From an uncultured Chloroflexia bacterium (lineage in GTDB: Bacteria > Chloroflexota > Chloroflexia > Thermomicrobiales > JALYUS01): DNA of 64,000 nt. Where the stretch lies: contig CAWJZC010000014.1 of NCBI GenBank assembly GCA_963847195.1, forward strand, positions 6,133 through 70,132, given 5' to 3'. Position 1 is the stretch's first letter; every line of letters starts with the position of its first letter. A model generated the notes under the pieces. The model did not search any database. It was given only the letters and a program-made list of their open reading frames with translations, and was not told where the DNA came from. Of the stretch, positions 9,783 to 27,732 are shown piece by piece. Made by a program: the position numbers and the translations under genes.

Positions 9783-10626
9783 TCATCCTAAGACATCAGC
9801 GAGGCGGTCGAGTTGGTCGAGGTGCGCGGTGGTCGGGAAGAGGACGAGGTGATCGCAGCCCGCCTCGGCGTAGCCACGGATGAACTGGGCGATCGATTGC
9901 GGCGTGGTCAGCAGCCCGGCGGCGATCCGCTCGGCGAAGGGGCCGGCGAAGGCGTAGTAATCGAGCAGGTAGCGCGTGCCCGCCTCCGCTTCCGTCGCAC
10001 CGAGGGCGTAGTAGCCCATCGCCCAGAGACGTGGACGGCCCGGTCTGCCCGCGTCGGTCCAGGCGGCGCGCGCCTTGTCGGCGGCGGCGGCGAAGGCGCG
10101 GGGTGGGCCGCCGCCGTGGATGTAGCCGTCCGCATAGCGGGCGGCGCGGGCGTACGCGCTATCGCTCAGGCCACCGACGAGTAGTTCCGGCCCGCCTGGC
10201 TGCACGGGGCACGGGCCGACGTGTTTCGTCTTCCCACTGGGTGCGCAGCGCTGCCAGTTGCTCGCTCAGACGGCGACCTCGCGCGTGGTAGTCAACCCCA
10301 GCGGCATCGTAGTCGTCCTTCCGTGCGCCGAGGGCGACGCCGAGCGTCAGGCGGCCATTGGAGAGCGCGTCGATAGTCGCCGCCGCCTTGGCGAGCAGCG
10401 CGTCGTTCTGCACCGGGCCGATCATCACCGTCGTCGCGAGGCGGATGCGCGTCGTCAGTCCGGCGGCCATCGCCAGCGTCGCGAGGGCGTCGTAACTGTT
10501 GTAGACAAGCCGGTCGAAGACGCCGAGGCTGGCGAACGGCCCCCGGTCCGCCCGGCACGCCCACTCGCGGAGCAGATCGCCCGTCGCCCCCTTCAGCGTA
10601 TTCGGCAGCCCAATCCCGACATCCAT
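9783..10626 (-). CDS. LLM-class (luciferase-like) flavin/F420-dependent oxidoreductase (one frame break near 10200)
   Basis: MDVGIGLPNTLKGATGDLLREWA..LATLAMAAGLTTRIRLATTVM..LSNGRLTLGVALG, then in another frame ..GGPELLVGGLSDSAYARAARYADGYI..CDHLVLFP. Confidence 0.8.
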
Positions 10627-12423: not shown

Positions 12424-12605
12424 TCCCCCGCCCCTCCCGCGTCCGCGATCCGCAGCCTGAACGATAGTGCATCCGTATCCGTCCGCGCACATGCCCCGTG
12501 CGACGAGCATCTTCACCTTCATTCGTGACCGCGCTATCGTGCGTCACTTCGCGGATTTGTTCAACACCCTTCCCATCGCGGTCGGTTTGGCGGATGATAC
12601 GGGGT

Positions 12606-12728
12606 GCCCACCCCCTGCCCCCTCCCGACACGGGAGCGGGAACCCATGTCGGGCGCACAGGCTTAGCGGACAAGCCATGGCACGATCGATGAACTCCCCT
12701 CCCGACGCGGGATGGGCAGGGGGTGGGC
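12606..12728. repeat. GC-rich nested inverted repeat in the ligase/RidA divergent intergenic region
   Basis: GCCCACCCCCTGCCC (12606..12620) is the exact reverse complement of GGGCAGGGGGTGGGC (12714..12728). The inner hairpins CTCCCGACACGGGAG and TCCCGACGCGGGA are direct copies of one another. Confidence 0.7.
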
Positions 12729-12745
12729 TCACCGGAGGATCGCCG

Positions 12746-13147
12746 ATGGAAACCTTGCAACCGCCCAACTGGGTGCAACCGCGCGGCTACGCAAATGGCA
12801 TCCTCGCGGAGGGGCGCGTCGTCTTTGTCGCCGGGCAAATCGGCTGGAATGGCGACTGCGTGTTCGAGACGGACGATTTCGCCGCGCAGGTGCGGCAGGC
12901 GCTCGCCAATGTCGTCGCGGTGCTCGCCGAGGCGGGCGGCACTCCAGGCGACATCGCGCGGATGACGTGGTACCTCACCGACAAGCGGGAGTACCGCGCC
13001 GCGCTCAGAGAAGTTGGCCGCGCCTACCGGGACGTGATCGGCGCGCACTACCCGGCGATGACGCTCGTGCAGGTCGCCGCCCTCCTCGAAGACCGCGCCA
13101 AGGTCGAGATCGAAGCGACGGCCGTACTGCCCTCCACAACGCAATAG
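12746..13147 (+). CDS. RidA/YjgF family reactive-intermediate deaminase
   Basis: METLQPPNWVQPRGYANGILAEGRVVFVAGQIGW..ARMTWYLTD..YPAMTLVQVAALLEDRAKVEIEATAVL. GGAGGA precedes the ATG. Confidence 0.9.
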   Translation: METLQPPNWVQPRGYANGILAEGRVVFVAGQIGWNGDCVFETDDFAAQVRQALANVVAVLAEAGGTPGDIARMTWYLTDKREYRAALREVGRAYRDVIGAHYPAMTLVQVAALLEDRAKVEIEATAVLPSTTQ

Positions 13148-13163
13148 GGAAGGGATCAAATCC

Positions 13164-13355
13164 CCAGGGACACCAAGAACACCAAGAAATGCTCGGTATC
13201 CTCAGCGTGTTGGGGTGTGCGCACATGAATATGGCTTTCCCTGGCGGTAGCAGGCAGAGAGCCTGCTTGTCCGTCCTGAGAGGTCAGGCTCACTGCCTGC
13301 TGCCGCCGATGCGATTTCGCCGGAACCCGCTCCGGTCTTCTTGGTGTCCTGGTGG
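13164..13355. repeat. Stuttered-arm palindromic repeat element (copy A3) between the convergent RidA and helicase genes
   Basis: CCAGGGACACCAAGAACACCAAGAA (13164..13188) pairs with GGTCTTCTTGGTGTCCTGGTGG (13334..13355). Inner hairpin AGCAGGCAGAGAGCCTGCT. The right arm abuts the TAA stop at 13356..13358. Confidence 0.7.
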
Positions 13356-16300
13356 TTATCCTTCTGCCGTTGGCACGTTGCCGAAGACGCGTACCTGCTT
13401 GCCGTGCAGCGTCCCCGACCAGAGGGGGACGGTGCAGGTGCGTTCCAGCAGGTGCTTCCAGAGTTGCGCGTGCGCGAATGTCTCCTCATCCGCGCTGAAG
13501 AGGGTGAAGACGGATTCCGAGGCGACGAGGATCATCTTCTGCTTGGCGCGGCTGAGGGCGACGGTCAGGCGGCGGGGATCGAGCAGGAACTTGCCGGACG
13601 CCATCAGGTAGGCGCGGTCGCTCTCCGTCGCGCCGACGAGGATCGCCGTCCGCTCGCCGCCCTGGAAGCGTTCGACGGTATCGACCGATGAGACGACGAT
13701 CGCGCCCGTCCGCTGATCGCGCGTACTAAGGCAGGGGATCTCCTCGCGCAAGGCGGCGCGCTGCGCCCGGTGCGGCACGACGACGCCGAGGCCGTCCACC
13801 GGCCCCAACCCATAGGGCGGCGCGGCGAGCGCTTCGAGGATCGGCGTAATCAGTTGCTGCTCGAAGGGGTTGCGTAACTGGCTCCGCGCCTCATCGTGGA
13901 CGATCACCACCATCGCGTGATCCGGCGCGAGCACGCGGGCGACGAAACCGTCCGGGTCCTCCCACGCCGCGTTCGATGCCAGCAGGGTGTGGTTGTGGGA
14001 GAAGAAGGGGATGCCGTCCTGCGCGTAGATCTCCTCCTTGAGGAAGGTGGCCATATCCGCGTGCAGCCGGAAACTCTCGGTGAACTTAATCATCTCCGGG
14101 ACGTGCGGCAGGAAGGCGAGGAAGAGCGATTCATAGGTGCGATACGCCTTGAACGTCCGGCGCGGCTCGTGCTCCCAGTCGTGTTTGACGATTGGCGGCA
14201 TCTGGCGATGATCGCCGACAATGATTAACTGCCCGTCGCGGTTGAGGAGGAGCGCCGCCATGATCGCCTCGGGCAGGTTCATCTGCGACGCTTCATCGAG
14301 GACGAGGCAGTCGCACCCGCCATGGCCGAGCATCTCCTTGCCCCAGCGATCCTTGACGATGCGGTAGACGCCACCGGGCGTCGCCGCGACGATGCACCAC
14401 GGCTGCGCCTCGATCGCGTCGGCGGCGCGCGGCGTGCCCTTCGGTCGCTCGGTATCGCGCGGCAGCGGGATGACGCCATCGGGGGGCGCCTCGCGCGGCG
14501 TCGTGCGGAAGAGCGGCACATCGAGCAGGCGCGCGTCGAAGTACCGCGCGAAGATCGCCGGGTGGCGTGCCGCGATGTCGCCCAACGTCTCCCGGACGAG
14601 GAGGATATCGCCCAGCAGGACGTTCGTCGCCGCATGGGTCTTGCAGGAGACGAAGGCGCGGAAGGGCCGGGCAGCCGCCATCGCTCCTTGCAGGCGCGCA
14701 AAGAGGGCGAAGGCGGTCGAGTAACTCTTGCCGGTGCCCGGCGGCCCTTGCACGAGCAGTGTCGGCAGATCGCCGCACGCGCCGATGAACCGCCGCTTGC
14801 CCTCCTCAAAGTCGTGGAACGCCCCCGCCGCATGGAGCGCGTCGAGTCCGGCGAGGAAGCGCGCCTGCCCCTCGCGCGCGGCCTCGGGCCAGGTGGCATA
14901 TGCGGCGGCGGGCGCGTCAAGGCGCTCGTAGAGTGTATTCGCCCCGCCCGCGCACAATTCCTGCACGATGCTGGCGCAGAAGGAGCCGTACCAGTCGTTC
15001 GGGTCCGCATCGAGCGTGTAGCATTCACCGTCGCGCAGCGGCCGCTCGAAGGAGGAGAAGGCGAAACCGGGGACGGCACTCTTGGCCCCCGGTCCGCGCA
15101 TCTCAACGACGATGACGTGATCGTTCGCATTGATTTCGACGATTGTCGCGCGGGTGCCGTAGAGCATCTGCTTCGGCGTCGGCGTGAAAGGCGTCCGCTC
15201 CGCCTCCGGCAGCCGCTCATCGACGGTCAGGCGCGGGAAGATGACGACGCTGTCGCCCGCGCGGAGCGAGGTGAGCGCGAGTGCTTCGTCGAGCGAGCAA
15301 TCGAGGCCATCGGCGACCAGTCCGAGCCGGAACCGGAGACCCTGCTGCGACCATTTCGTCTCTTTGCGCTGCTCTTTCGAGAGTTCTGCTCGTGCCGCGC
15401 CGGGGTTGGCGCGGAGGTAGTCCGCCCCGTATCTTGCCGCTTTCTCGGACTGCTCGACGTTCGCGGCATTGGCGGCGGCGACCTCCGGCGATTGCGCGCT
15501 CGCCCGGTAGCGGACGAGCAGCGTCTCACCCGTCAGGGCACGCCGCTCCGGCGGGGCGAGGCGCGCCGCCTTCCACGCGCCGAGCTCGACGTGCCGCTCG
15601 ATCATCACGAACTCGTCGATGGCGTGCGCGCGGGAACGCGCCGTCTCGGAGAATTGCGCGAGGTCCGGCAGGTCGAAGGGGCGTTTCTCGGTCTGTTTGT
15701 TCCCTTTGAACTGCTTGGCGACGTGCTCCATCGCCTCCAACCGACGCCCCTGGAAGCCGCGCAGATCGTCCGTCGTCACGGCGCGGTAGGGAGCGAATTC
15801 ATCCCGCGTGCCCGGCGATGGCGGCGCCAGTTCCCCCCATGCCGCGTAGGCATATTCGAGCGGGATGCGGCTATTGAAGCGCGCCCGCCGTGTATACCAG
15901 CGCGCCGTCTCGTCGTCCGGCTCGAGTTTGCCGCGCGCATCGAAGAGGCGCTCACGGAAGAGGTCGCGGTACGGCGTCCCGGCGTTCCAATCGAAGCGGG
16001 TGATGGACGCGACCGCCTGCAACGACTGGCAGACGATCGGGTAGTTCTTCAACTCGCGAATCTCCCGATCGAGATGCGTGGCAATCGGCGAGTCGAAGGC
16101 GGCGATCTGGGTGACGAAATCGTAGCAGGGCGTCGCCCCGAAGATCGCGCCGAGGTGCCGCGCCAGACCGTCCAGGAGGAGCCGCTGCTCCTGGCTGTCG
16201 TTGAAGATGAGGTGAATTGGCGCGCGCATCGCACCATCGGCGTCCGGCGCGGCGACGGCGACGAGCGCTTGCAGAGTCTCGGCGATCCAGCGGAGGAAGA

Positions 16301-17720
16301 GCGCTTCCTCCTTGGCGGTCGTGTCCGGCGGCCCGTCCGTCAGGTGGATGATGCTCCGGCGCCGCCCGGGGACTTCCTCTCCCCGCTCGCAGGCGACGAC
16401 GAGCGCGCCGATCAGGTAGATGCGGTCGTGCAGGTAATCGTGCTGCGCGTCGATGTAGACGCGGATCAGGTTCGGGTTCTGCGCGGCGTCCGCGTAGGGG
16501 AGCGATCCGTACCCCTTGCTCGGGATGTATCCGAGGGCGGCGAGTGGATCGCCCTGCGAGCGACGATAGCCCCGCGCCCGGTGGATCAATTCGTCCACGC
16601 GCGGGCCGACGGGCCAGGTGGCGGCCAGTCGCGTGGCGAGCGCCTCCTTGCCCGGCGCTGCGACCAGTTCGCTCAGATGGGAGGGTATATCCGCCGCCGC
16701 CGGTTCCTTCACGGTGGCGAGATCGCGGACGGTCGCGATCCCCGCGCCGAGCAGCGCGCTCTTGTCGTTCGGGGTCAGGTGGGGGAGGAGCGAGAGGTCG
16801 TCCCGCTCGACGCTCCGCTTCATGCAGAACTCGTTGTAGAGGCAGCCGTCGCATTTGGCGTTGAGGTGGAAAGGGATGGTATCGAAGGACGCCGCGATGA
16901 CGCGCCGCGCCGTCGAACTCGGCCCGGTGACGAGGTCGTGGACCGAGCGGCGATAGTCGGCGGCGTTCGCGATGATTTCCAGCAGGCCGACATCGCCGCC
17001 GAACGAGTGACGTGCGGCGACCTGTTGTGCGGCTGCCTCAGGCGATGCATCGCCGCCGTCTGCCGGGCCGCGATAGAGCACAGCGATCTCGATCTTCTCG
17101 CAGGCGATGCCATCGGCGGCGAAGAGCGCGTCGAGCATTTCGGCATAGAAGGCGACTTGGAGGCGGTGCTCGACCTTCGCGCTCGTCGAACTTTTCATGT
17201 CGGCGATCATCACGCGCAGGGTGTCGCCCGCGTCCCGCTCCAGGCGGAGGATGTCCACGTCGCCGCGAATCTGCCAGCCATCCAGCGCGACCGTGAGGCG
17301 CGGCTGGAAGAGGACGCGCACGCTCCCGGCGGGGAGCGCGGCTGCCTCGGCGATCACCGCCGCGTTGTTTTCCGGCCGGGCGCCGGAACCGCCGTGCTCC
17401 ACCGCGAAGTCGCGCGTCGCATGGCGCGCGGCGATCACCGCCGTGACATGCTGCTCGAATGTCGCGCCGGAACGGGTGAGCAGCGGGGTGACGGAGACGG
17501 GCGCGACGCTGTACTGGCGCAGGAAGTTCGCGTTCACGCCCCGCTCGTGCAGCCGGAGGCGTAGGTATCGCTCGCATTGTTCGAGGCGGATGAACTGGGA
17601 GATGTCCGTCGGGGAGAGGCGCAACGTCCCATCGGGCCGTTCCGCCGAAAATTCGTCAGTCATCCCACGCTCCATTTCCCCAGAAATCATCTGATAGTCA
17701 TGCCGGAGGCCTGCCTCCAC
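13356..17720 (-). CDS. Giant fusion protein (1454 aa from the GTG at 17720; an ATG at 17663 with a GGAG is an alternative start). It combines a Cas4/RecB-type PD-(D/E)XK Fe-S nuclease, an HhH, an RNase-H-like segment, about 390 unassigned residues and an SF1 Upf1/Dna2-like helicase.
   Basis: Nuclease: C49, GDVD (aa 153-156), IADMK (172-176), QVAFY (188-192), CDGCLYNEFC (290-299). HhH: LTPNDKSALLGAGIATVRDL. RNase-H-like: NLIRVYIDAQHDYLHDRIYLIGALVV. Helicase: Walker A QGPPGTGKS (991-999, nt 14724..14750), Walker B LVLDEASQ (nt 14283..14306), IIVGDHRQMPP, VDTVERFQGGERTAILV, RRLTVALSRAKQKMILV. There is no frame break in 4.3 kb. Confidence 0.85.
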   Translation of the reverse strand: MEAGLRHDYQMISGEMERGMTDEFSAERPDGTLRLSPTDISQFIRLEQCERYLRLRLHERGVNANFLRQYSVAPVSVTPLLTRSGATFEQHVTAVIAARHATRDFAVEHGGSGARPENNAAVIAEAAALPAGSVRVLFQPRLTVALDGWQIRGDVDILRLERDAGDTLRVMIADMKSSTSAKVEHRLQVAFYAEMLDALFAADGIACEKIEIAVLYRGPADGGDASPEAAAQQVAARHSFGGDVGLLEIIANAADYRRSVHDLVTGPSSTARRVIAASFDTIPFHLNAKCDGCLYNEFCMKRSVERDDLSLLPHLTPNDKSALLGAGIATVRDLATVKEPAAADIPSHLSELVAAPGKEALATRLAATWPVGPRVDELIHRARGYRRSQGDPLAALGYIPSKGYGSLPYADAAQNPNLIRVYIDAQHDYLHDRIYLIGALVVACERGEEVPGRRRSIIHLTDGPPDTTAKEEALFLRWIAETLQALVAVAAPDADGAMRAPIHLIFNDSQEQRLLLDGLARHLGAIFGATPCYDFVTQIAAFDSPIATHLDREIRELKNYPIVCQSLQAVASITRFDWNAGTPYRDLFRERLFDARGKLEPDDETARWYTRRARFNSRIPLEYAYAAWGELAPPSPGTRDEFAPYRAVTTDDLRGFQGRRLEAMEHVAKQFKGNKQTEKRPFDLPDLAQFSETARSRAHAIDEFVMIERHVELGAWKAARLAPPERRALTGETLLVRYRASAQSPEVAAANAANVEQSEKAARYGADYLRANPGAARAELSKEQRKETKWSQQGLRFRLGLVADGLDCSLDEALALTSLRAGDSVVIFPRLTVDERLPEAERTPFTPTPKQMLYGTRATIVEINANDHVIVVEMRGPGAKSAVPGFAFSSFERPLRDGECYTLDADPNDWYGSFCASIVQELCAGGANTLYERLDAPAAAYATWPEAAREGQARFLAGLDALHAAGAFHDFEEGKRRFIGACGDLPTLLVQGPPGTGKSYSTAFALFARLQGAMAAARPFRAFVSCKTHAATNVLLGDILLVRETLGDIAARHPAIFARYFDARLLDVPLFRTTPREAPPDGVIPLPRDTERPKGTPRAADAIEAQPWCIVAATPGGVYRIVKDRWGKEMLGHGGCDCLVLDEASQMNLPEAIMAALLLNRDGQLIIVGDHRQMPPIVKHDWEHEPRRTFKAYRTYESLFLAFLPHVPEMIKFTESFRLHADMATFLKEEIYAQDGIPFFSHNHTLLASNAAWEDPDGFVARVLAPDHAMVVIVHDEARSQLRNPFEQQLITPILEALAAPPYGLGPVDGLGVVVPHRAQRAALREEIPCLSTRDQRTGAIVVSSVDTVERFQGGERTAILVGATESDRAYLMASGKFLLDPRRLTVALSRAKQKMILVASESVFTLFSADEETFAHAQLWKHLLERTCTVPLWSGTLHGKQVRVFGNVPTAEG

Positions 17721-17757
17721 TATGACAGGGCTCTACTGTGTTGAACGGTGCGTATCA

Positions 17758-18693
17758 TCAGAACGTGACAGGCTCGTTTCCACTGGTGTGCCGACGGAAG
17801 AGCGTCATGTGGAGAATGACACCCCGATCGACGAGCGCCGCGCCCGCGATGCCGCCCCCGCTGAAGCGAACGTCATGCCCGCTGCCCGGCGACGAGAAGG
17901 TTTCCATCTTCGCCTCGCGGATGCGGCGCGCCATGCGGATGGCGCGCTCCTTCGCAACGGAGGGCGCGGCGGGAGCTCGGAGCGCGTCTAGCGCGGCGGC
18001 CCGTACGAATGTCCGCCAGAGCGCGGCCATCGTCTTGGGCGCGTCGAAAAGTTCGAGGCCGGTGACGCGCCCGCCGATCGCCGTCACCATGCCGACCGCG
18101 CCATCCGGGTAGGGAATGGCGCGCTCGAAGGAGGCGAGATCGTCCCCCCTCCGGTCGTAGAGATCGGCCATCGCCCCGGTCGGCGAGAGGATCGCTTCCG
18201 CGGTCTGTCGCTCCGCGATATTTGCCCAGATTGCGCTCTGATCGCTCCTGTGCGTGCCGCTCTGCCGCAATGACGCAGCGACCTGCATCGCGGTCTCCGC
18301 CCGGAGTGCGGGGTAGAGCGCGTCGTGCGACGCGAAGCCGGCCTGCGGCACGGACCAGCGCGCCTGCTCTACACAGGAGACCGGCAGCACCGTCATCCCC
18401 GGCGGGACGAGTACGGTGCTATTAATGATCCGATTCTGCTTGCCGCCGACCAATTCCTGACCATTAACGATCATGACGGGCAGGGTGCCGGTATTCCGTG
18501 CCATCAGCGTGCCGACGCTCGCACGCTCCATCTCGGCGATGTGTAGCGTCTTCTTCGCCGCCGCATCGGTCAGGAGTGTGTACGCGAGATAGCCGTGACG
18601 CACGCCGCTGAGCGGGAAGATGGTCAGCGCCTCGTGCGTCAGCGCGTCCTCGACCCAGAGTGCGTCGCAGCGTTGTGTGAATAGATTGCTCAT
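17758..18693 (-). CDS. Conserved hypothetical protein (311 aa), first gene of the helicase operon; reminiscent of the DUF6569 / ARPP-1-like family
   Basis: ATG at 18693 after GAGGGGGA. N-terminal half: LTIFPL..YLAYTLLTDAAAKKTLHIAEM..VMIVNGQELVGGKQNRIINSTVLVPPG..LPVSCVEQARW. C-terminal half: GAVGMVTAIGGRVTGLELFDAPKTMAALW. No catalytic motif recognised. The family call is memory only. The gene ends 37 nt before the helicase ORF. Confidence 0.6.
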   Translation of the reverse strand: MSNLFTQRCDALWVEDALTHEALTIFPLSGVRHGYLAYTLLTDAAAKKTLHIAEMERASVGTLMARNTGTLPVMIVNGQELVGGKQNRIINSTVLVPPGMTVLPVSCVEQARWSVPQAGFASHDALYPALRAETAMQVAASLRQSGTHRSDQSAIWANIAERQTAEAILSPTGAMADLYDRRGDDLASFERAIPYPDGAVGMVTAIGGRVTGLELFDAPKTMAALWRTFVRAAALDALRAPAAPSVAKERAIRMARRIREAKMETFSSPGSGHDVRFSGGGIAGAALVDRGVILHMTLFRRHTSGNEPVTF

Positions 18694-18839
18694 GGCTTCC
18701 CCCTCGGTATCTGCCGGTGCGCCGCTTATTCGCGCTGTATCCCACAGTAACAGCACTCACCGGACGAGGATGCGTCCACTTTCATTCCTCTGGTACACTG
18801 AGCTACGCGAATGCGCTGACACCGGAAGGACGATGCAAG

Positions 18840-19886
18840 ATGGGCGTGGAGGGCGAACGTCCGGAGGTGACGGCGGAGCAGCGCTCGCTGGCGATGCTCG
18901 TCGCGCTTCATCTGCACCCGACCGGGCTGCGGCGGGCCGAACTGATCGGCGAGGTGCGGCGTCTCCTCGCCGAGCCGGAACTCTATCTCGGCCAGCGCGA
19001 CGCGGCGGGGGAGACGCGCGAGCGACCGCTGGAGGAGCGCACGATCCATCGCGATCTCGTCCGCGTGCGCGACTGGCTCGGCACGAAACCGTGGCCCGAC
19101 ATCGCCGTGACGGATGAGCACGCCGGGCGGGAGCGGCGGTACCGTCTGGCGCAGGGGCTTGTGCCCGGCTTCGTCCTCACCGACGGCGACCGCGACGCGT
19201 TGCGCGAGATTTTCCAGCACCTCTGCGGCGCGAAGGCGGGGACGCGGTCGATTGTCCTGCCTTTCGTCCAAAAGGTCGCGGGCGAAATGCTCGCCGTGGA
19301 CACCGGAGATGTCCTGCCGCCCGATGTGATGGGGTATCTGACCCAGGAGCAACGGGACGCGCTCGCCGTCATCGTGCGCGCCAAGCAGCGGCAGCAGGGG
19401 ATCGCCTTCGCCTATACGGCGGGGAGCGGCACGAAGCGATACGTCGCGTGGCCGATTGAGATTTCATGGTTCGGGACGCGCGTCTACATTGCCGCGCGCA
19501 AGGACGATCAGCAGTTCCGCGTCTTCCGGCTTGATCGCTTCCTGCCTCGACCGGATCAATCCGCCCGGCATCTCCTCGTCCAGCCGACCGGGAGGAGCGC
19601 GCCGTTCGGACTCAGCCTCCCGTCACGCCCGTTCCGGTTGCGCGTGCGCGGCAATCTCGTGCCCTTCTTCCGGGACACCGCCGTCTTCTTTGATCAAGCA
19701 GTCGCGCCCGAGGAGGACGGATCGCTGATCGTCACGGGGACGTATCGCTCCGACGTTCTCCTCGCGAACAACGTACTCCGGTACGGCGCCGCCGTCGAGT
19801 TGTTGGAACCCAGGCGGGTCCGTACACTGATTACGGAAGAGGTCGCGGCTCTCACGCGCCTCTATGCCGGGGAACCGGCCGGATAG
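18840..19886 (+). CDS. wHTH-WYL-type transcriptional regulator (BrxR/CapW-like architecture)
   Basis: N-terminal wHTH-like LAMLVALHLHPTGLRRAELIGEV..TIHRDLVRVRDWLG. WYL-like core IAFAYTAGSGTKRYVAWPIEISWFGTRVYIAARKDDQQFRVFRLDRF (about nt 19386..19559). C-terminal extension ..VLRYGAAVELLEPRRVR. It is divergent from the helicase operon. Confidence 0.75.
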   Translation: MGVEGERPEVTAEQRSLAMLVALHLHPTGLRRAELIGEVRRLLAEPELYLGQRDAAGETRERPLEERTIHRDLVRVRDWLGTKPWPDIAVTDEHAGRERRYRLAQGLVPGFVLTDGDRDALREIFQHLCGAKAGTRSIVLPFVQKVAGEMLAVDTGDVLPPDVMGYLTQEQRDALAVIVRAKQRQQGIAFAYTAGSGTKRYVAWPIEISWFGTRVYIAARKDDQQFRVFRLDRFLPRPDQSARHLLVQPTGRSAPFGLSLPSRPFRLRVRGNLVPFFRDTAVFFDQAVAPEEDGSLIVTGTYRSDVLLANNVLRYGAAVELLEPRRVRTLITEEVAALTRLYAGEPAG

Positions 19887-19977
19887 CGGCAACTGCCCCG
19901 ATGCGCTCTCAGCCTTCCGCCAGATAGCGCAGCGCGACGGCAGCGTGCATAGTGGGTTGTCGACGATGGAGGGCGGC

Positions 19978-20379
19978 TTATGATGCGTCAGCGTCCGCCG
20001 CATTGGCGCGCTGCGAGACGATGAAGTCATGGACCGCTGCCCAGTCTACCTGCGTCAAGGACCAGTCGACGAATGCCTTGATATCGCCAAGTTCCGGGGG
20101 GGCGAACTGCGTGGCGTATTTCGTCAGGTCCTCGCGCAGCCAGCGGAGGTTGCCATCCCGCTTCACCCGCTTGTCGAGGTACTCCTGCATCTCGGTCAGT
20201 TCGTCCGGCGACACCTGCTCGCCCGCGTCGCTGCGCGCATCGGTCGTGTCGTCCACCCATGCCCGGACGGCACCCTTGGTGTGCATCTCCGCGATCTCGT
20301 CGGGGGCATCGGTGAGCCAGTCGACAATCATGCGGGTCGGTGTCAGTTCCTGTCCGATTGTTTCTGTCGTGGCGCCCAT
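19978..20379 (-). CDS. Acidic hypothetical protein (133 aa)
   Basis: MGATTETIGQELTPTRMIVDWLTDAPDEIAEMH.. preceded by GGAGCAGGAGAGGGAGCAG. It is strongly D/E-rich and no family was recognised. An ATG at 20400 is an alternative start. Confidence 0.5.
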   Translation of the reverse strand: MGATTETIGQELTPTRMIVDWLTDAPDEIAEMHTKGAVRAWVDDTTDARSDAGEQVSPDELTEMQEYLDKRVKRDGNLRWLREDLTKYATQFAPPELGDIKAFVDWSLTQVDWAAVHDFIVSQRANAADADAS

Positions 20380-20500
20380 CTGCTCCCTCTCCTGCTCCAT
20401 TCCTGCCCGCCGCCAATGCACATTGCGTGCCGCCGCGCGGTCGTGCTGCTCGCGAGAGCGAATCGTATGCCGCCATTCTCGGTATAGCGGAGCGCGGCGG

Positions 20501-20529
20501 TTGACACCGCGATCATCGACGGGCAAGAT
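20501..20529 (+). promoter_or_regulatory. Weak promoter candidate TTGACA-N17-CAAGAT upstream of the ABC-2 permease
   Basis: TTGACA at 20501..20506, a 17-nt spacer, then CAAGAT at 20524..20529, about 50 nt upstream of the ATG at 20579. Confidence 0.3.
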
Positions 20530-20578
20530 ACCCGGCGATACTGGAGGGTCGGCACGCACCGTTGATGGGGGACAGAGG

Positions 20579-21434
20579 ATGGCAGAAACGATCGCAAAAC
20601 CGCAGCCGCGCACGCCGGTGTATTCGAGCATTTCGAGTGCCGGTTTGCTCGGGCGGCTGCGCACGCTCTTCGAGCGCCGCGATCTCATCTGGGAGCTGAC
20701 CGCCCGCAACCTCAAGGTCCGCTACCGCCGCTCGGTCTTCGGCTTTCTCTGGGCGATCCTCAACCCGCTGCTCAATGCCCTCGTCTTCGGGTTCGTCTTC
20801 GGCGTCTTGCTCAAGTCCCCGATTGACCGGTTCGTGCTCTTTGTGCTTGATCGGATTTATGGCCTGGGGCGCGTTCGCCGCGTCCGTGCTGGAATCGATG
20901 GCAGTCATTACCGGGTCGTCCGCCCTGGTCACGCGCGTGCGCTTCCCGCATGAGGTGCTGCCGATTTCCACGGTACTCGCGAATATGATCAACCTCGTGC
21001 TGGCGGCGCTGCCGAGCATCTTCGTCGTCATGGCGATCACGCATTCGCCGTTGCACCCGCAGTTGATCTTGTTCCCCCTGGTGCTGATCTGTCTCTTCGC
21101 CTTCTCGCTCGGTGTCGGCTTCATGTCGGCGGCGGCGAATGTCTTCTTCCGCGACACGCGCAACTTCCTCGACGTGGTGATCAGCCTCTGGTTCTTCCTC
21201 ACGCCGATTATTTACAACCTCGACGCCGTGTTCGTCACGCCGAGGTTGCAGCGGCTGGTGTACTGGCTCAACCCGATGGCCTCGATCATCACCCTGCTGC
21301 GCCACATGTTCTACACCGGCTACTGGGACGCCCCCAGCTTCTTCCTGCGCACGACGGTCGCCTGCTTCGCGGTGCTGATCGCGGGCTGGGTCTTCTTCGT
21401 CAAACTCTCCGAGCGATTCGTCGAGGAGCTGTAA
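20579..21434 (+). CDS. ABC-2 type exporter permease (Wzm/TagG-like), one frame break near 20840
   Basis: LIWELTARNLKVRYRRSVFGFLWAILNPLLNALVFGFVFGVLLK, then in another frame ..FMAWGAFAASVLE..VRFPHEVLPISTVLANMINL..NVFFRDTRNFLDVVISLWFFLTPIIY. No ATPase gene is adjacent. Confidence 0.8.
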
Positions 21435-26383: not shown

Positions 26384-27049
26384 CTAATCGCGCTGAAAGC
26401 GGACGATCTCGCCCGTGATCCTCTCGTCCGTGATATGGAGGAGGCCGTAGGAGAAACTGGGCGCGGTGCGCCGGTCGGTGGGCGAACCGGGATTGAAGAG
26501 GAGGACGCCGTCCGTCTCTTCGTTCATCGGCTGGTGGCTGTGCCCGAAGATGACGCACTGCACGTCCTTGAAGGTCCGCCGCGCGCGCTCGGGCGTCGTG
26601 CTGCCCCTGCCGCCGTCGCCGTGGACGATGCCGATTCGCCACGGCCCGACTTCAACGACGCGCTGCATCGGTAACGCGCGCTGCACATCCGGGAGATCGG
26701 TATTGCCGCGCACGGCGAGCACGGGCGGCCCGATGCGGCGCACCTGTTCGAGCGCCTCGCGCGTGGTGAAATCGCCCGCGTGGAGGATGAGATCGACGTG
26801 CCGCAGCCCGTTCGTCACCGGGAAGGGCAGTTCACGCGCCCGCGAGGGCATGTGCGTGTCCGCCAGCACGCCGATAGTCAGCGGCGGCGTCCAGACGCGC
26901 TGCTCAGCGGGCGGCGGCGGCGGCAGCGGTGGGAACCGCGAGTTGTCCGCCCCCGTGCGCAGGTTGACCCGCCCCGGTATCGGCGGGCGGTAACTGCTCG
27001 GCCGTTCGGGCCGATCCGGGGGATCCGATTCGTTCAACCAAGCCTCCAC
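26384..27049 (-). CDS. YfcE/MJ0936-type metallophosphoesterase with a Pro-rich N-terminal extension (start uncertain)
   Basis: IGVLADTHM..LILHAGDF..LAVRGNTD..IGIVHGD..VIFGHSHQP..LFNPGS. GTG at 27049 and TTG at 27037 are candidate starts. Confidence 0.8.
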   Translation of the reverse strand: MEAWLNESDPPDRPERPSSYRPPIPGRVNLRTGADNSRFPPLPPPPPAEQRVWTPPLTIGVLADTHMPSRARELPFPVTNGLRHVDLILHAGDFTTREALEQVRRIGPPVLAVRGNTDLPDVQRALPMQRVVEVGPWRIGIVHGDGGRGSTTPERARRTFKDVQCVIFGHSHQPMNEETDGVLLFNPGSPTDRRTAPSFSYGLLHITDERITGEIVRFQRD

Positions 27050-27055
27050 GGAGCA

Positions 27056-27213
27056 AGGACTGAGGATTGAGGGCTGAGGACTGAGCCTTCGCCCGCTCGC
27101 GCCCGATAATACCACGGCTGCGTGGTATACTTGCCGTTCGGCAGCAACGGCTGCTCCGGCATGTGCGTAGCGACGAGGTCTATCCTGGGGAACACTGCAG
27201 TCCTCAGTCCTGA
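27056..27213. repeat. Heptad-stutter inverted repeat (GGACTGAGG units)
   Basis: AGGACTGAGGATTGAGGGCTGAGGACTGAG (27056..27085) against CAGTCCTCAGTCCTGA (27198..27213). The same unit recurs at 35898..35911 and 54733..54750. Confidence 0.65.
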
Positions 27214-27234
27214 AGCGACCAGAGGGAGCGACAG

Positions 27235-27732
27235 ATGGCATCCGCATCGTCCTTCGATATTGTCTCGAAGTTTGACCGGCAAGAATTGAAGAATGCGGTC
27301 GATCAGGCGCAGCGCGAGATGACGACGCGTTACGACCTCAAAGATACGAAGAGCGAGATTACGCTCGACGAGAAGGCGATTACGATCACCGCGCCGTCCG
27401 AATACGTCATCACGACGATCCGCGATCTGCTCGAAAGCAAGGTGCTGCGGCGCAGCCTGTCGCTGAAGATTCTCGACCCCGGCAAGGTGGAAGACATCGT
27501 CGGTGGCCGCGCCAAGCAGATCATCACGCTCAAAGAGGGCCTGCCGGACGACCTCGCCAAGAAGATGACCAAGACGATCCGGGACGAGTTCAAGAAGGTC
27601 CAGCCGCAAATCCAGGGCGACGCCATCCGCGTGCAGGCGAAGGCGAGGGACGACCTGCAGGGCGTCATCCAATACTTCCGCGAGCACGAGAACGACTATC
27701 CCGTCGCCTTGCAGTTCGTCAATTATCGGTAA
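27235..27732 (+). CDS. yajQ: YajQ family (UPF0234) nucleotide/c-di-GMP-binding protein
   Basis: SSFDIVSKFDRQELKNAVDQAQREMTTRYDLKDT..KKVQPQIQGDAIRVQAKARDDLQGVIQYF..LQFVNYR. Confidence 0.92.
   Translation: MASASSFDIVSKFDRQELKNAVDQAQREMTTRYDLKDTKSEITLDEKAITITAPSEYVITTIRDLLESKVLRRSLSLKILDPGKVEDIVGGRAKQIITLKEGLPDDLAKKMTKTIRDEFKKVQPQIQGDAIRVQAKARDDLQGVIQYFREHENDYPVALQFVNYR

Follow-up and report, generated by a model that had tools for sequence, protein, structure and literature searches.

Does a compact set of three genes in the genome of an uncultured Chloroflexia bacterium represent a new defence system, or does it bring together genes that are otherwise found apart? We examined this question for positions 13,356 to 19,886 of a 64,000-nt stretch of DNA, hereafter called the window (assembly GCA_963847195.1, contig CAWJZC010000014.1, positions 6,133-70,132 of the forward strand). 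From the letters of this stretch, an original prediction had proposed a defence-type module in which a WYL-domain regulator is divergent from a two-gene operon encoding a 311-amino-acid protein and a large fusion of an iron-sulfur (Fe-S) nuclease to a helicase. We find that the locus is a composite, in which a conserved core of a WYL gene and an ARPP-1 gene has been joined, in one Thermomicrobiales lineage, by a Dna2/Bad-like nuclease-helicase that normally stands alone. The core pair was already predicted computationally in 2022, and the locus is not a wholly new defence system or a new defence class. The joining of a Dna2-like effector to this pair is, as far as the tools used here show, undescribed and confined to one lineage.

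Families and domains of the three genes

All three open reading frames (ORFs) are intact and uninterrupted (13356..17720 and 17758..18756 on the minus strand, 18717..19886 on the plus strand), and third-position GC values of 0.80-0.86 back their coding status. They form the compact unit that had been described, with the WYL gene divergent from a minus-strand pair. The features of the unit are as follows.

13356..17663, minus strand: coding sequence of the nuclease-helicase, 1435 amino acids; the ORF reaches upstream to GTG 17720, and ATG 17663 is preferred
16764..17663, minus strand: Fe-S ("iron-staple") PD-(D/E)XK nuclease domain, residues 1-300, Cas4/RecB/EXO5-like (Pfam PDDEXK_1)
15864..16763, minus strand: central region, residues 301-600, with a helix-hairpin-helix (HhH) followed by a probable RNase H-like fold at about residues 400-540 (TIGR03491, AlphaFold2 [AF2], Foldseek)
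14784..15863, minus strand: helical and beta-barrel linker, residues 601-960 (AF2 secondary structure)
13359..14783, minus strand: superfamily 1B (SF1B) helicase, Upf1/Dna2-like, residues 961-1435 (Pfam AAA_11/AAA_12/AAA_19)
17664..17757, minus strand: ARPP-helicase spacer, 94 nt from the ARPP-1 stop to the helicase start
17758..18693, minus strand: ARPP-1 (PF20208/DUF6569), 311 amino acids (Pfam match, within the longer ORF to 18756)
18694..18839, between the ARPP-1 and WYL genes: divergent promoter region, 146 bp (sequence, and alignment with the related contigs L082 and L090)
18762..18777: palindrome GGACG-N6-CGTCC, a candidate operator for the WYL protein (aligned intergenic regions of the window, L082 and L090)
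18840..19886, plus strand: WYL-WCX transcription factor, 348 amino acids (Pfam WYL and WCX; PADLOC WYL models)
13243..13307, between the convergent RidA and helicase genes: hairpin with 23-nt arms, at the end of the unit

Translation of the helicase most likely begins at ATG 17663, which has GGAG 6 nt upstream; a database protein (P0001) of 1435 amino acids is 100% identical to the window helicase, and the N-termini of homologues agree with this start. The gap between the ARPP-1 and helicase genes is therefore 94 nt, not the 37 nt given originally; L082 has a spacer of equal length (94 nt), and that of L090 measures about 66 nt. The ARPP-1 gene starts at ATG 18693, preceded by GAGGGGGAAG, and the WYL gene at ATG 18840, with GGAAGGA ahead of the ATG.

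The 311-amino-acid protein had been regarded as unknown. Its sequence identifies it as a clear member of the ARPP-1 family, since it matches PF20208 with 254.4 bits against a cut-off of 27 (E = 1.9e-75) over profile positions 4-297 of 297; its homologues carry PF20208 as well, and one of them is named DUF6569. The window protein retains Q86, R88, C107, E109, R112 and W113, none of which varies across 33 sequences. An absolutely conserved Cys and Gln have been proposed as the ARPP active site (Iyer et al., 2022; PMC9503650), and action on ADP-ribose or other sugar moieties is likewise a published prediction for the family (PMC9503650). The window protein is predicted to be an enzyme. Its AF2 model is of high confidence (pLDDT 94, pTM 0.92). 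Foldseek returned no meaningful structural relative for this model (best PDB match E = 0.13; best BFVD match E = 4.7e-3, TM 0.15-0.23), a profile search of PDB sequences yielded no relative, and neither the PADLOC models nor phage records contained a match to ARPP-1. Literature searches under "DUF6569" or "PLuB system" retrieved no papers.

In the third protein, residue numbering follows the 1435-amino-acid form, in which K979 and D155/K157 correspond to K998 and D174/K176 of the 1454-residue ORF. The domain matches that had been anticipated for the locus (AAA_11/AAA_12, PD-(D/E)XK and WYL) were all found by Pfam; PADLOC and NCBIfam added weak matches to Cas4 and TM0106 profiles in the nuclease domain, for which Foldseek retrieved EXO5 (7lw9, E = 5.7e-4) and Cas4 SSO0001. 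The nuclease D..D.K and QxxxY motifs and the helicase Walker A and B motifs are invariant across homologues (23-39 sequences). Among individual positions, C30, C271, C280, D137, D155, K157, Q169 and Y173 are invariant in both the 23- and the 39-sequence alignments, and C274 is invariant in the former and at least 90% conserved in the latter. The cysteines reproduce the four-Cys iron-staple pattern (C30 plus C271-x2-C274-x5-C280) on either side of the nuclease motifs, and they are predicted to bind an Fe-S cluster. At the other end of the protein the helicase motifs are intact (GPPGTGKS, VLDEASQ, VGDHRQMPP and DTVERFQGGER); in a profile search against the PDB the helicase domain of mouse Dna2 scores best (5eaw, E = 6.7e-22), with Upf1 next (E = 1.7e-17).

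The region between the two catalytic modules is partly assignable. TIGR03491 (TM0106) matches residues 288-347, and the AF2 model (pLDDT 84) displays a beta-beta-beta-alpha-beta-alpha pattern at residues 400-502. Foldseek gave weak matches to the C-terminal half of UvrC, EndoV, RNase H and NurA (E = 0.016-0.2). Residues of about 400-540 probably adopt an RNase H-like fold. D405, D409, E452, H484 and D524 are invariant in the central region in both alignments, and this region possibly carries a second nuclease active site. The linker that follows falls into no assigned family and is conserved in full-length homologues. A set of shorter relatives from Acidobacteriota and Chloroflexota (1259-1330 amino acids), which have Bad-like proportions, shares only residues 300-725.

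For the regulator, which had been described as a winged-helix WYL protein, the C-terminal part of that description stands: Pfam detects a WYL domain at residues 174-234 (28.4 bits, cut-off 21.8) and a WCX domain at residues 264-338 (41.7 bits, cut-off 23.9). The helix-turn-helix (HTH) part found no Pfam match in the N-terminal approximately 170 residues, and the PADLOC WYL model PDLC01457 aligns from residue 65. No BrxR or CapW structure matched the WYL protein at E ≤ 1.

The 146-bp region between the divergent genes aligns poorly with its counterpart in L090 for most of its length, except for one block containing an inverted repeat. The core of this repeat, GACG-N6-CGTC, is common to the window, L082 and L090 and is the sole well-conserved block of the intergenic alignment. 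Neither L082 (23 kb) nor L090 (5.6 kb) contains more than a single copy, which in both cases lies at the divergent-promoter position; the core alone is no rarer in the 64-kb window than chance would give. The palindrome at 18762-18777 is, from its conservation and position, a candidate operator of the WYL protein. A further GACG-N6-CGTC at 17793-17806, within the 3′ end of ARPP-1, was considered as a second operator ahead of the helicase; neither L082 nor L090 has it at that position, the pattern is not rarer than chance in the window, and this copy was treated as a chance occurrence.

Within the ARPP-helicase spacer the palindrome pattern is absent, and a coding-strand scan revealed no terminator-like site. 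A conserved element in the spacer was rejected, as only a short, uninformative block directly after the stop codon aligns; a sigma-70 promoter scan returned no informative match in either intergenic region. With neither a terminator-like site nor a conserved motif between the two genes, co-transcription of ARPP-1 and the helicase is plausible on the sequence.

Genomic neighbourhoods of the ARPP-1 and helicase families

The composite character of the locus emerges from the surroundings of its components in other genomes. The combination "ARPP + WYL domain TF" has been listed as a conserved two-gene neighbourhood in the study that defined ARPP (Iyer et al., 2022; PMC9503650, section 3.8). Among 57 immediate neighbours of ARPP-1, drawn from about 45 of 68 ARPP-1 loci, the WYL/WCX/HTH_11 family is by far the commonest (12 of the 57, with 10 matching HTH_11). 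With an iterated WYL profile, a WYL gene was detected no more than 1.5 kb upstream of ARPP-1 in 19 of the 35 loci that retain at least 1.2 kb of upstream flank, and over all ARPP-1 loci with a nearby WYL gene the orientation is divergent in 11 and co-directional in 10. The WYL-ARPP linkage that Iyer et al. (2022) listed is therefore confirmed. In the other 18 WYL-ARPP loci, a search for a third gene that recurs downstream found none.

The two-gene operon of ARPP-1 and helicase, in turn, did not hold up as a conserved pair. Outside the window the helicase is present in only two of the 68 ARPP-1 loci, both on closely related contigs (L082 and L090), and in reverse, tblastn found ARPP-1 near the helicase in none of 81 independent loci from other genomes (nothing significant at E ≤ 1). 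A WYL gene near the helicase is confined to two or three exceptions among these 81 loci; tblastn with the WYL protein gave one weak match, in L027 (E = 0.003), and otherwise nothing significant at E ≤ 1. A conserved partner was also sought by all-versus-all clustering of the neighbouring ORFs and was rejected, as only sub-clade synteny was recovered. With no ARPP-1 nearby in 81 loci and no neighbour family conserved beyond sub-clades, the helicase gene therefore almost always stands alone.

All three genes are found together in the window, L082 and L090 only. Relative to the window, L082 is 88% identical in the helicase, 80% in ARPP-1 and 84-88% in the WYL protein, and L090 is 64% identical in ARPP-1, 74% in the WYL protein and 64% in the helicase N-terminus. 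Neighbours on the helicase side vary between RidA and LeuRS, and those on the WYL side between an ABC-2 permease, an M20 peptidase with an ABC-2 permease, and a transporter that is MMPL-like by eye only and has no homologue in the window. That the flanks differ on both sides of the three trios suggests that this lineage keeps the three genes together as a unit.

The helicase family itself is large, comprising more than 667 proteins at E ≤ 1e-10, with full-length homologues that are 53-79% identical, or 55-79% among the matches listed at that threshold, and its central domain resolves into 431 clusters at 50% identity. A genome scan confirmed at least 571 loci, in at least 571 species out of about 185,000; the hosts are in Chloroflexota, Gemmataceae and other Planctomycetota, Acidobacteriota, Armatimonadota and others. 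Identities across phyla (53-56%) are no lower than many of those measured within Thermomicrobiales (44-64%), and horizontal transfer is therefore indicated. Haloarchaeal plasmids encode more distant relatives, as does a plasmid or chromid of Chlorohelix.

Some individual loci of the two families deserve description in their own right. ARPP-1 homologues stand beside DISARM components at L142 3489-6620 and L110 2662-4257 (DrmD, E = 0 by PADLOC, and DrmMII); DrmD was assigned to the SNF2 helicase of L142, and DrmMII to the C-5 methylase of L110, by way of their Pfam matches and not by per-protein PADLOC results. In L085 (2398-8909), which represents Chloroflexota metagenome-assembled genomes (MAGs; 24 contigs), one strand carries genes for DNA polymerase A, a NERD SF1 helicase, a WYL protein, an HD_4 phosphohydrolase and a 52%-identical ARPP-1, so that ARPP-1 again appears with a WYL gene and a different helicase.

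Among the helicase loci, L004 (8691-18190) has a 56%-identical helicase that is preceded, at a distance of 252 bp, by a WYL/WCX gene of the same orientation; ARPP-1 is missing, and a Tn3-family transposase follows. This locus may be a transposon-borne WYL-helicase pair. A co-directional row in L056 (5844-21649, a Gemmataceae MAG) begins with a WYL protein whose HTH is of the PafC type and a UvrD helicase whose N-terminus resembles a ParE toxin. It continues with the Dna2-like nuclease-helicase and then a sacsin/HATPase_c_3 protein of 2470 amino acids, and looks like a conflict-system cluster. In L083 (465-16673) and L084, a 73%-identical helicase adjoins genes for a tyrosine integrase, a Prim-Pol/DUF3987 protein and HTH_17 proteins, and this integrase/Prim-Pol/excisionase-like island continues with a VWA protein and a 1182-amino-acid fusion of Peptidase_M78, UvrD helicase and PDDEXK domains. 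A type I HsdR gene adjoins a helicase homologue in two of 29 loci, and on a haloarchaeal plasmid (L171) a homologue adjoins a restriction endonuclease. The sole phage match is a distant relative of the helicase (27% identity over residues 128-1408) on an unannotated gut-metagenome contig (MT835580.1, 38667-41986).

In the window, the helicase-side flank consists of RidA (12467-13147, plus strand) and an acyl-CoA synthetase, and the WYL-side flank of an ABC-2 permease (20775-21434, plus strand), Usp and kynureninase. RidA, the ABC-2 gene and the repeat hairpin are thus present as had been described. The interpretation of the unit as an inserted cassette, which was built on them, was discarded as unsupported: the GC content of the locus (0.66-0.68) is like that of the remaining window, no tRNA or Rfam element was found in the window, and no integrase or transposase lies in the neighbourhood of the locus. 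The hairpin at 13243-13307 is a probable terminator-type structure. It is bracketed by a tandem CACCAAGAA (13172-13189) and the complement (13338-13347), which together form a composite palindrome of about 190 bp (13164-13350) that is unique within the window. Two further genes in the vicinity appear to be split. A luciferase-like monooxygenase at 9783-10626 is distributed over overlapping minus-strand ORFs (9783-10205, profile positions 165-248; 10159-10626, profile positions 22-141) and is an apparent frameshift or pseudogene. The ABC-2 permease match extends over two plus-strand frames (19952-20953, profile positions 3-41; 20775-21434, profile positions 55-211), reflecting either a frameshifted gene or the inclusion in a longer gene of the region previously read as a small acidic ORF.

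A tentative model and its competitors

For the function of the composite we tentatively lean, at somewhat less than an even chance, towards a WYL-gated DNA-processing module that serves in conflict or defence, against foreign DNA or damage inflicted by an invader, rather than in housekeeping repair. A dimer of the WYL protein would bind the GGACG-N6-CGTCC palindrome between the divergent genes, and its activity would change when the WYL domain binds a nucleic-acid-derived ligand (single-stranded DNA [ssDNA], or a nucleotide or ADP-ribose derivative) arising from infection or DNA injury. ARPP-1 and the nuclease-helicase would then be induced together, the helicase probably being read from the same WYL-controlled divergent promoter as ARPP-1. 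The invariant Cys/Gln/Glu pocket of ARPP-1 would act on an adduct linked through a sugar, for instance an abasic lesion or one of the ADP-ribose type. The nuclease-helicase would thread onto 5′ ssDNA ends or flaps, move 5′ to 3′ and cut ssDNA in the manner of Bad and Dna2, leading to removal of the offending DNA, and the RNase H-like domain might aid its degradation. We infer both the direction of translocation and the cleavage of ssDNA by analogy with these enzymes.

A defence-type role of this kind, as originally proposed, is made plausible by what surrounds ARPP-1 and the helicase elsewhere, whereas the window locus itself is not located in a defence island. The immediate neighbours of ARPP-1 include DrmD, DrmMII, AbiEi, AbiD/Abi_2, PDC-S05 and PDC-S23 candidates, RhuM and REase-ARP, a tally taken without a matched background. 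On the helicase side, the loci beside HsdR, the Tn3 transposase, the sacsin/HATPase protein, the integrase/Prim-Pol island and the haloarchaeal restriction endonuclease speak for conflict, as do the Type III-like methyltransferase gene next to that of Bad and the signs of horizontal transfer. The authors who defined ARPP argued for a conflict role in NAD+/ADP-ribose-type systems (PMC9503650).

A number of observations weigh against the conflict model. The roles of all three families are predictions only. No mobile-element or defence family was detected in the 20 surrounding ORFs scanned (about 10 per side), and the locus sits among metabolic genes without a compositional anomaly. Of 116 proteins encoded no more than two genes from a helicase homologue, only about 8 are defence-like, by a raw count without a matched background, and most neighbours are metabolic. 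The helicase is strongly conserved (mean column identity 57-60%), as would be expected of an enzyme of cellular DNA maintenance no less than of an immune effector. By sequence, the WYL protein comes closest among solved structures to PafC and DriD, although weakly (E = 6e-4 to 9e-3). The conservation of the palindrome rests on three related sequences, and the 94-nt spacer is long enough to hold a promoter of its own. Helicases that are 73% (L083/L084) and 64% (L002) identical to that of the window occur without ARPP-1 and WYL, and the linkage is therefore dispensable.

Several of these points are shared with a DNA-damage response or repair operon, an alternative that we consider possible but doubtful. 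Here the WYL protein would sense ssDNA in the manner of PafBC, DriD or SiwR, ARPP-1 would handle an abasic or DNA-ADP-ribose lesion in an SRAP-like way, and the Dna2-like enzyme would resect or remove flaps on the cell's own chromosome. WYL regulators of DNA-damage genes are documented (PMC9186387; PMC10693628), and two of the DriD ssDNA-contact positions are conserved in the window protein (Tyr192 and Arg204, with Trp206 replaced by Phe). The similarity to PafC and DriD is marginal, however, and confined to the generic WYL-WCX region. That Dna2 is the best match of a highly conserved helicase accords with repair, as does the housekeeping or metabolic context of the window and of most helicase homologues, while the patchy distribution of the family and its suggested transfer across phyla do not. 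Repair-type associations of ARPP-1 (Ogt, ERCC4 twice, a HIRAN fusion, and PolA with the NERD helicase) and a DinB-family gene near the Chlorohelix helicase homologue are set against repeated, occasional links of the two families to DISARM, Abi, restriction-modification, Tn3 and integrase genes, and against the preference of the ARPP-defining authors for conflict.

It is also conceivable, if rather unlikely, that the adjacency is coincidental, with WYL and ARPP-1 forming a self-contained pair and the helicase an independent solo gene with its own promoter and an unrelated role. The absence of ARPP-1 from the 81 helicase loci, the lack of a conserved helicase neighbour and of a recurrent third gene in the other WYL-ARPP loci, and the close helicase relatives without the pair are all as this explanation would have it; so are a spacer that could accommodate a promoter, the absence of the palindrome from that spacer, and the lack of conservation of the copy in the ARPP-1 3′ end. 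Against it, same-strand adjacency with a short spacer is kept down to 64% identity, in both ARPP-1 and the helicase, while both flanks change, and no terminator-like site was found between the genes. WYL genes have moreover come to lie beside members of the helicase family independently in L004 and L056, and other ARPP-1 loci contain different helicases or nucleases (NERD/UvrD-like, SNF2/DrmD, ERCC4 and REase-ARP), matching the "variable effector" pattern of PMC9503650.

A stronger proposal than the conflict model, to which we assign little probability, is that the trio constitutes an undescribed three-component immune or repair system. In such a system, WYL would sense nucleic acid from an invader or from damage, the ARPP-1 Cys would recognise a sugar-linked adduct on DNA or trap it covalently (DNA ADP-ribosylation by a phage or toxin ADP-ribosyltransferase being one example), and a helicase with two nucleases would destroy or repair the marked DNA. 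If this were true, the 1435-amino-acid family, present in at least 571 species, would represent a new class of Dna2-like effector.

The locus is a useful entry point to three families characterised by prediction. ARPP-1 combines a confidently predicted fold that lacks a structural relative with an invariant Cys pocket. The nuclease-helicase family is large, extends over several phyla and apparently contains, besides the Fe-S nuclease, an RNase H-like nuclease domain that went unrecognised in Bad, its sole studied analogue. The operon-like linkage in this lineage offers a handle on what WYL-ARPP modules sense and on what bacterial Dna2-like enzymes do.

Comparison with known systems

In agreement with the original prediction, PADLOC and NCBIfam models for known defence systems matched the three proteins only at the level of single domains (helicase, weak Cas4 and generic WYL). 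The closest published arrangement is the ARPP + WYL pair (Iyer et al., 2022, Viruses 14:1977), in which the same two families are adjacent, with the conserved Cys and Gln and a WYL-WCX regulator; in the window the WYL gene is divergent and 146 bp away. The published unit comprises two genes, whereas the window adds the 1435-amino-acid nuclease-helicase after ARPP-1. ARG-centred versions have restriction endonuclease (REase) and helicase add-ons, none of them of the Dna2-like type (PMC9503650). The components of ARG-centred ADP-ribose counter-defence systems (ARG, Macro, NADAR and rhodanese-phosphatase) are absent from the 20 ORFs around the window unit; a calcineurin-like phosphoesterase at 26384-27247 is 6.5 kb off and unlinked to it. 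With PafBC, DriD and SiwR, which act in DNA damage, and with BrxR and CapW, which act in defence, the regulator shares the WYL-WCX region, an often divergent placement and a palindromic candidate operator.

The SF1 Upf1-like motifs and the fusion or pairing of a helicase with a nuclease are shared with Nhi, Hhe, Mokosh MkoA/MkoC, DpdJ, ProA and PLuB. MkoA (E = 1.2e-28) and DpdJ (E = 1.5e-24), the best PADLOC-DB v2 matches, were rejected, as they cover helicase residues 988-1419 only and their partner genes, PLD and Dpd among them, are absent nearby. The PLuB helicase-like protein (NF040671) scored 99.3 bits against a cut-off of 999 over model positions 834-1235 of 1256, which correspond to the helicase core, and was likewise rejected for the window protein and for seven of the shorter relatives. 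For ProA and Hhe the scores are far below the cut-offs, and the alignments extend no further than the helicase core or a motif of 40 residues. Partner domains (PLD, Vsr or others) are missing, and no Nhi-named model is among the PADLOC and NCBIfam matches.

An Nhi-like protein had been named as the nearest concept; the characterised architectural counterparts, which that proposal did not consider, are instead Bad and Dna2. TM0106 (TIGR03491) and Cas4/EXO5 proteins share a Cas4-type Fe-S nuclease followed by the HhH and RNase H-like module, but the window protein scores 34 bits against the TIGR03491 cut-off of 97, and those proteins lack an SF1B helicase. Eukaryotic Dna2 (5eaw/5ean) likewise has an Fe-S PD-(D/E)XK nuclease followed by an SF1B helicase. 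The match to it is limited to the helicase (profile positions 1126-1408), about 650 extra residues separate nuclease and helicase in the window protein, and the window family is non-essential and patchy in bacteria.

Bad from Geobacillus stearothermophilus moves along ssDNA 5′ to 3′ and cuts it as an endonuclease (Wilkinson et al., 2020, NAR 48:7991; PMC7430649); its gene adjoins that of a Type III-like methyltransferase (PMC7430649). It is shorter than the window protein (1245 versus 1435 amino acids) and is not found beside WYL or ARPP-1 genes; it was compared here through its published description. On the predicted domains, the layout of the two proteins is the same: an N-terminal RecB-type nuclease with a four-Cys Fe-S site, a large central domain that is absent from eukaryotic Dna2, and a C-terminal SF1B helicase. 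Like the window family, Bad is encoded by a solo gene of sporadic distribution. Its central domain was reported to have no detectable similarity to anything (PMC7430649), whereas that of the window family is partly assignable, to an HhH and a probable RNase H-like fold.

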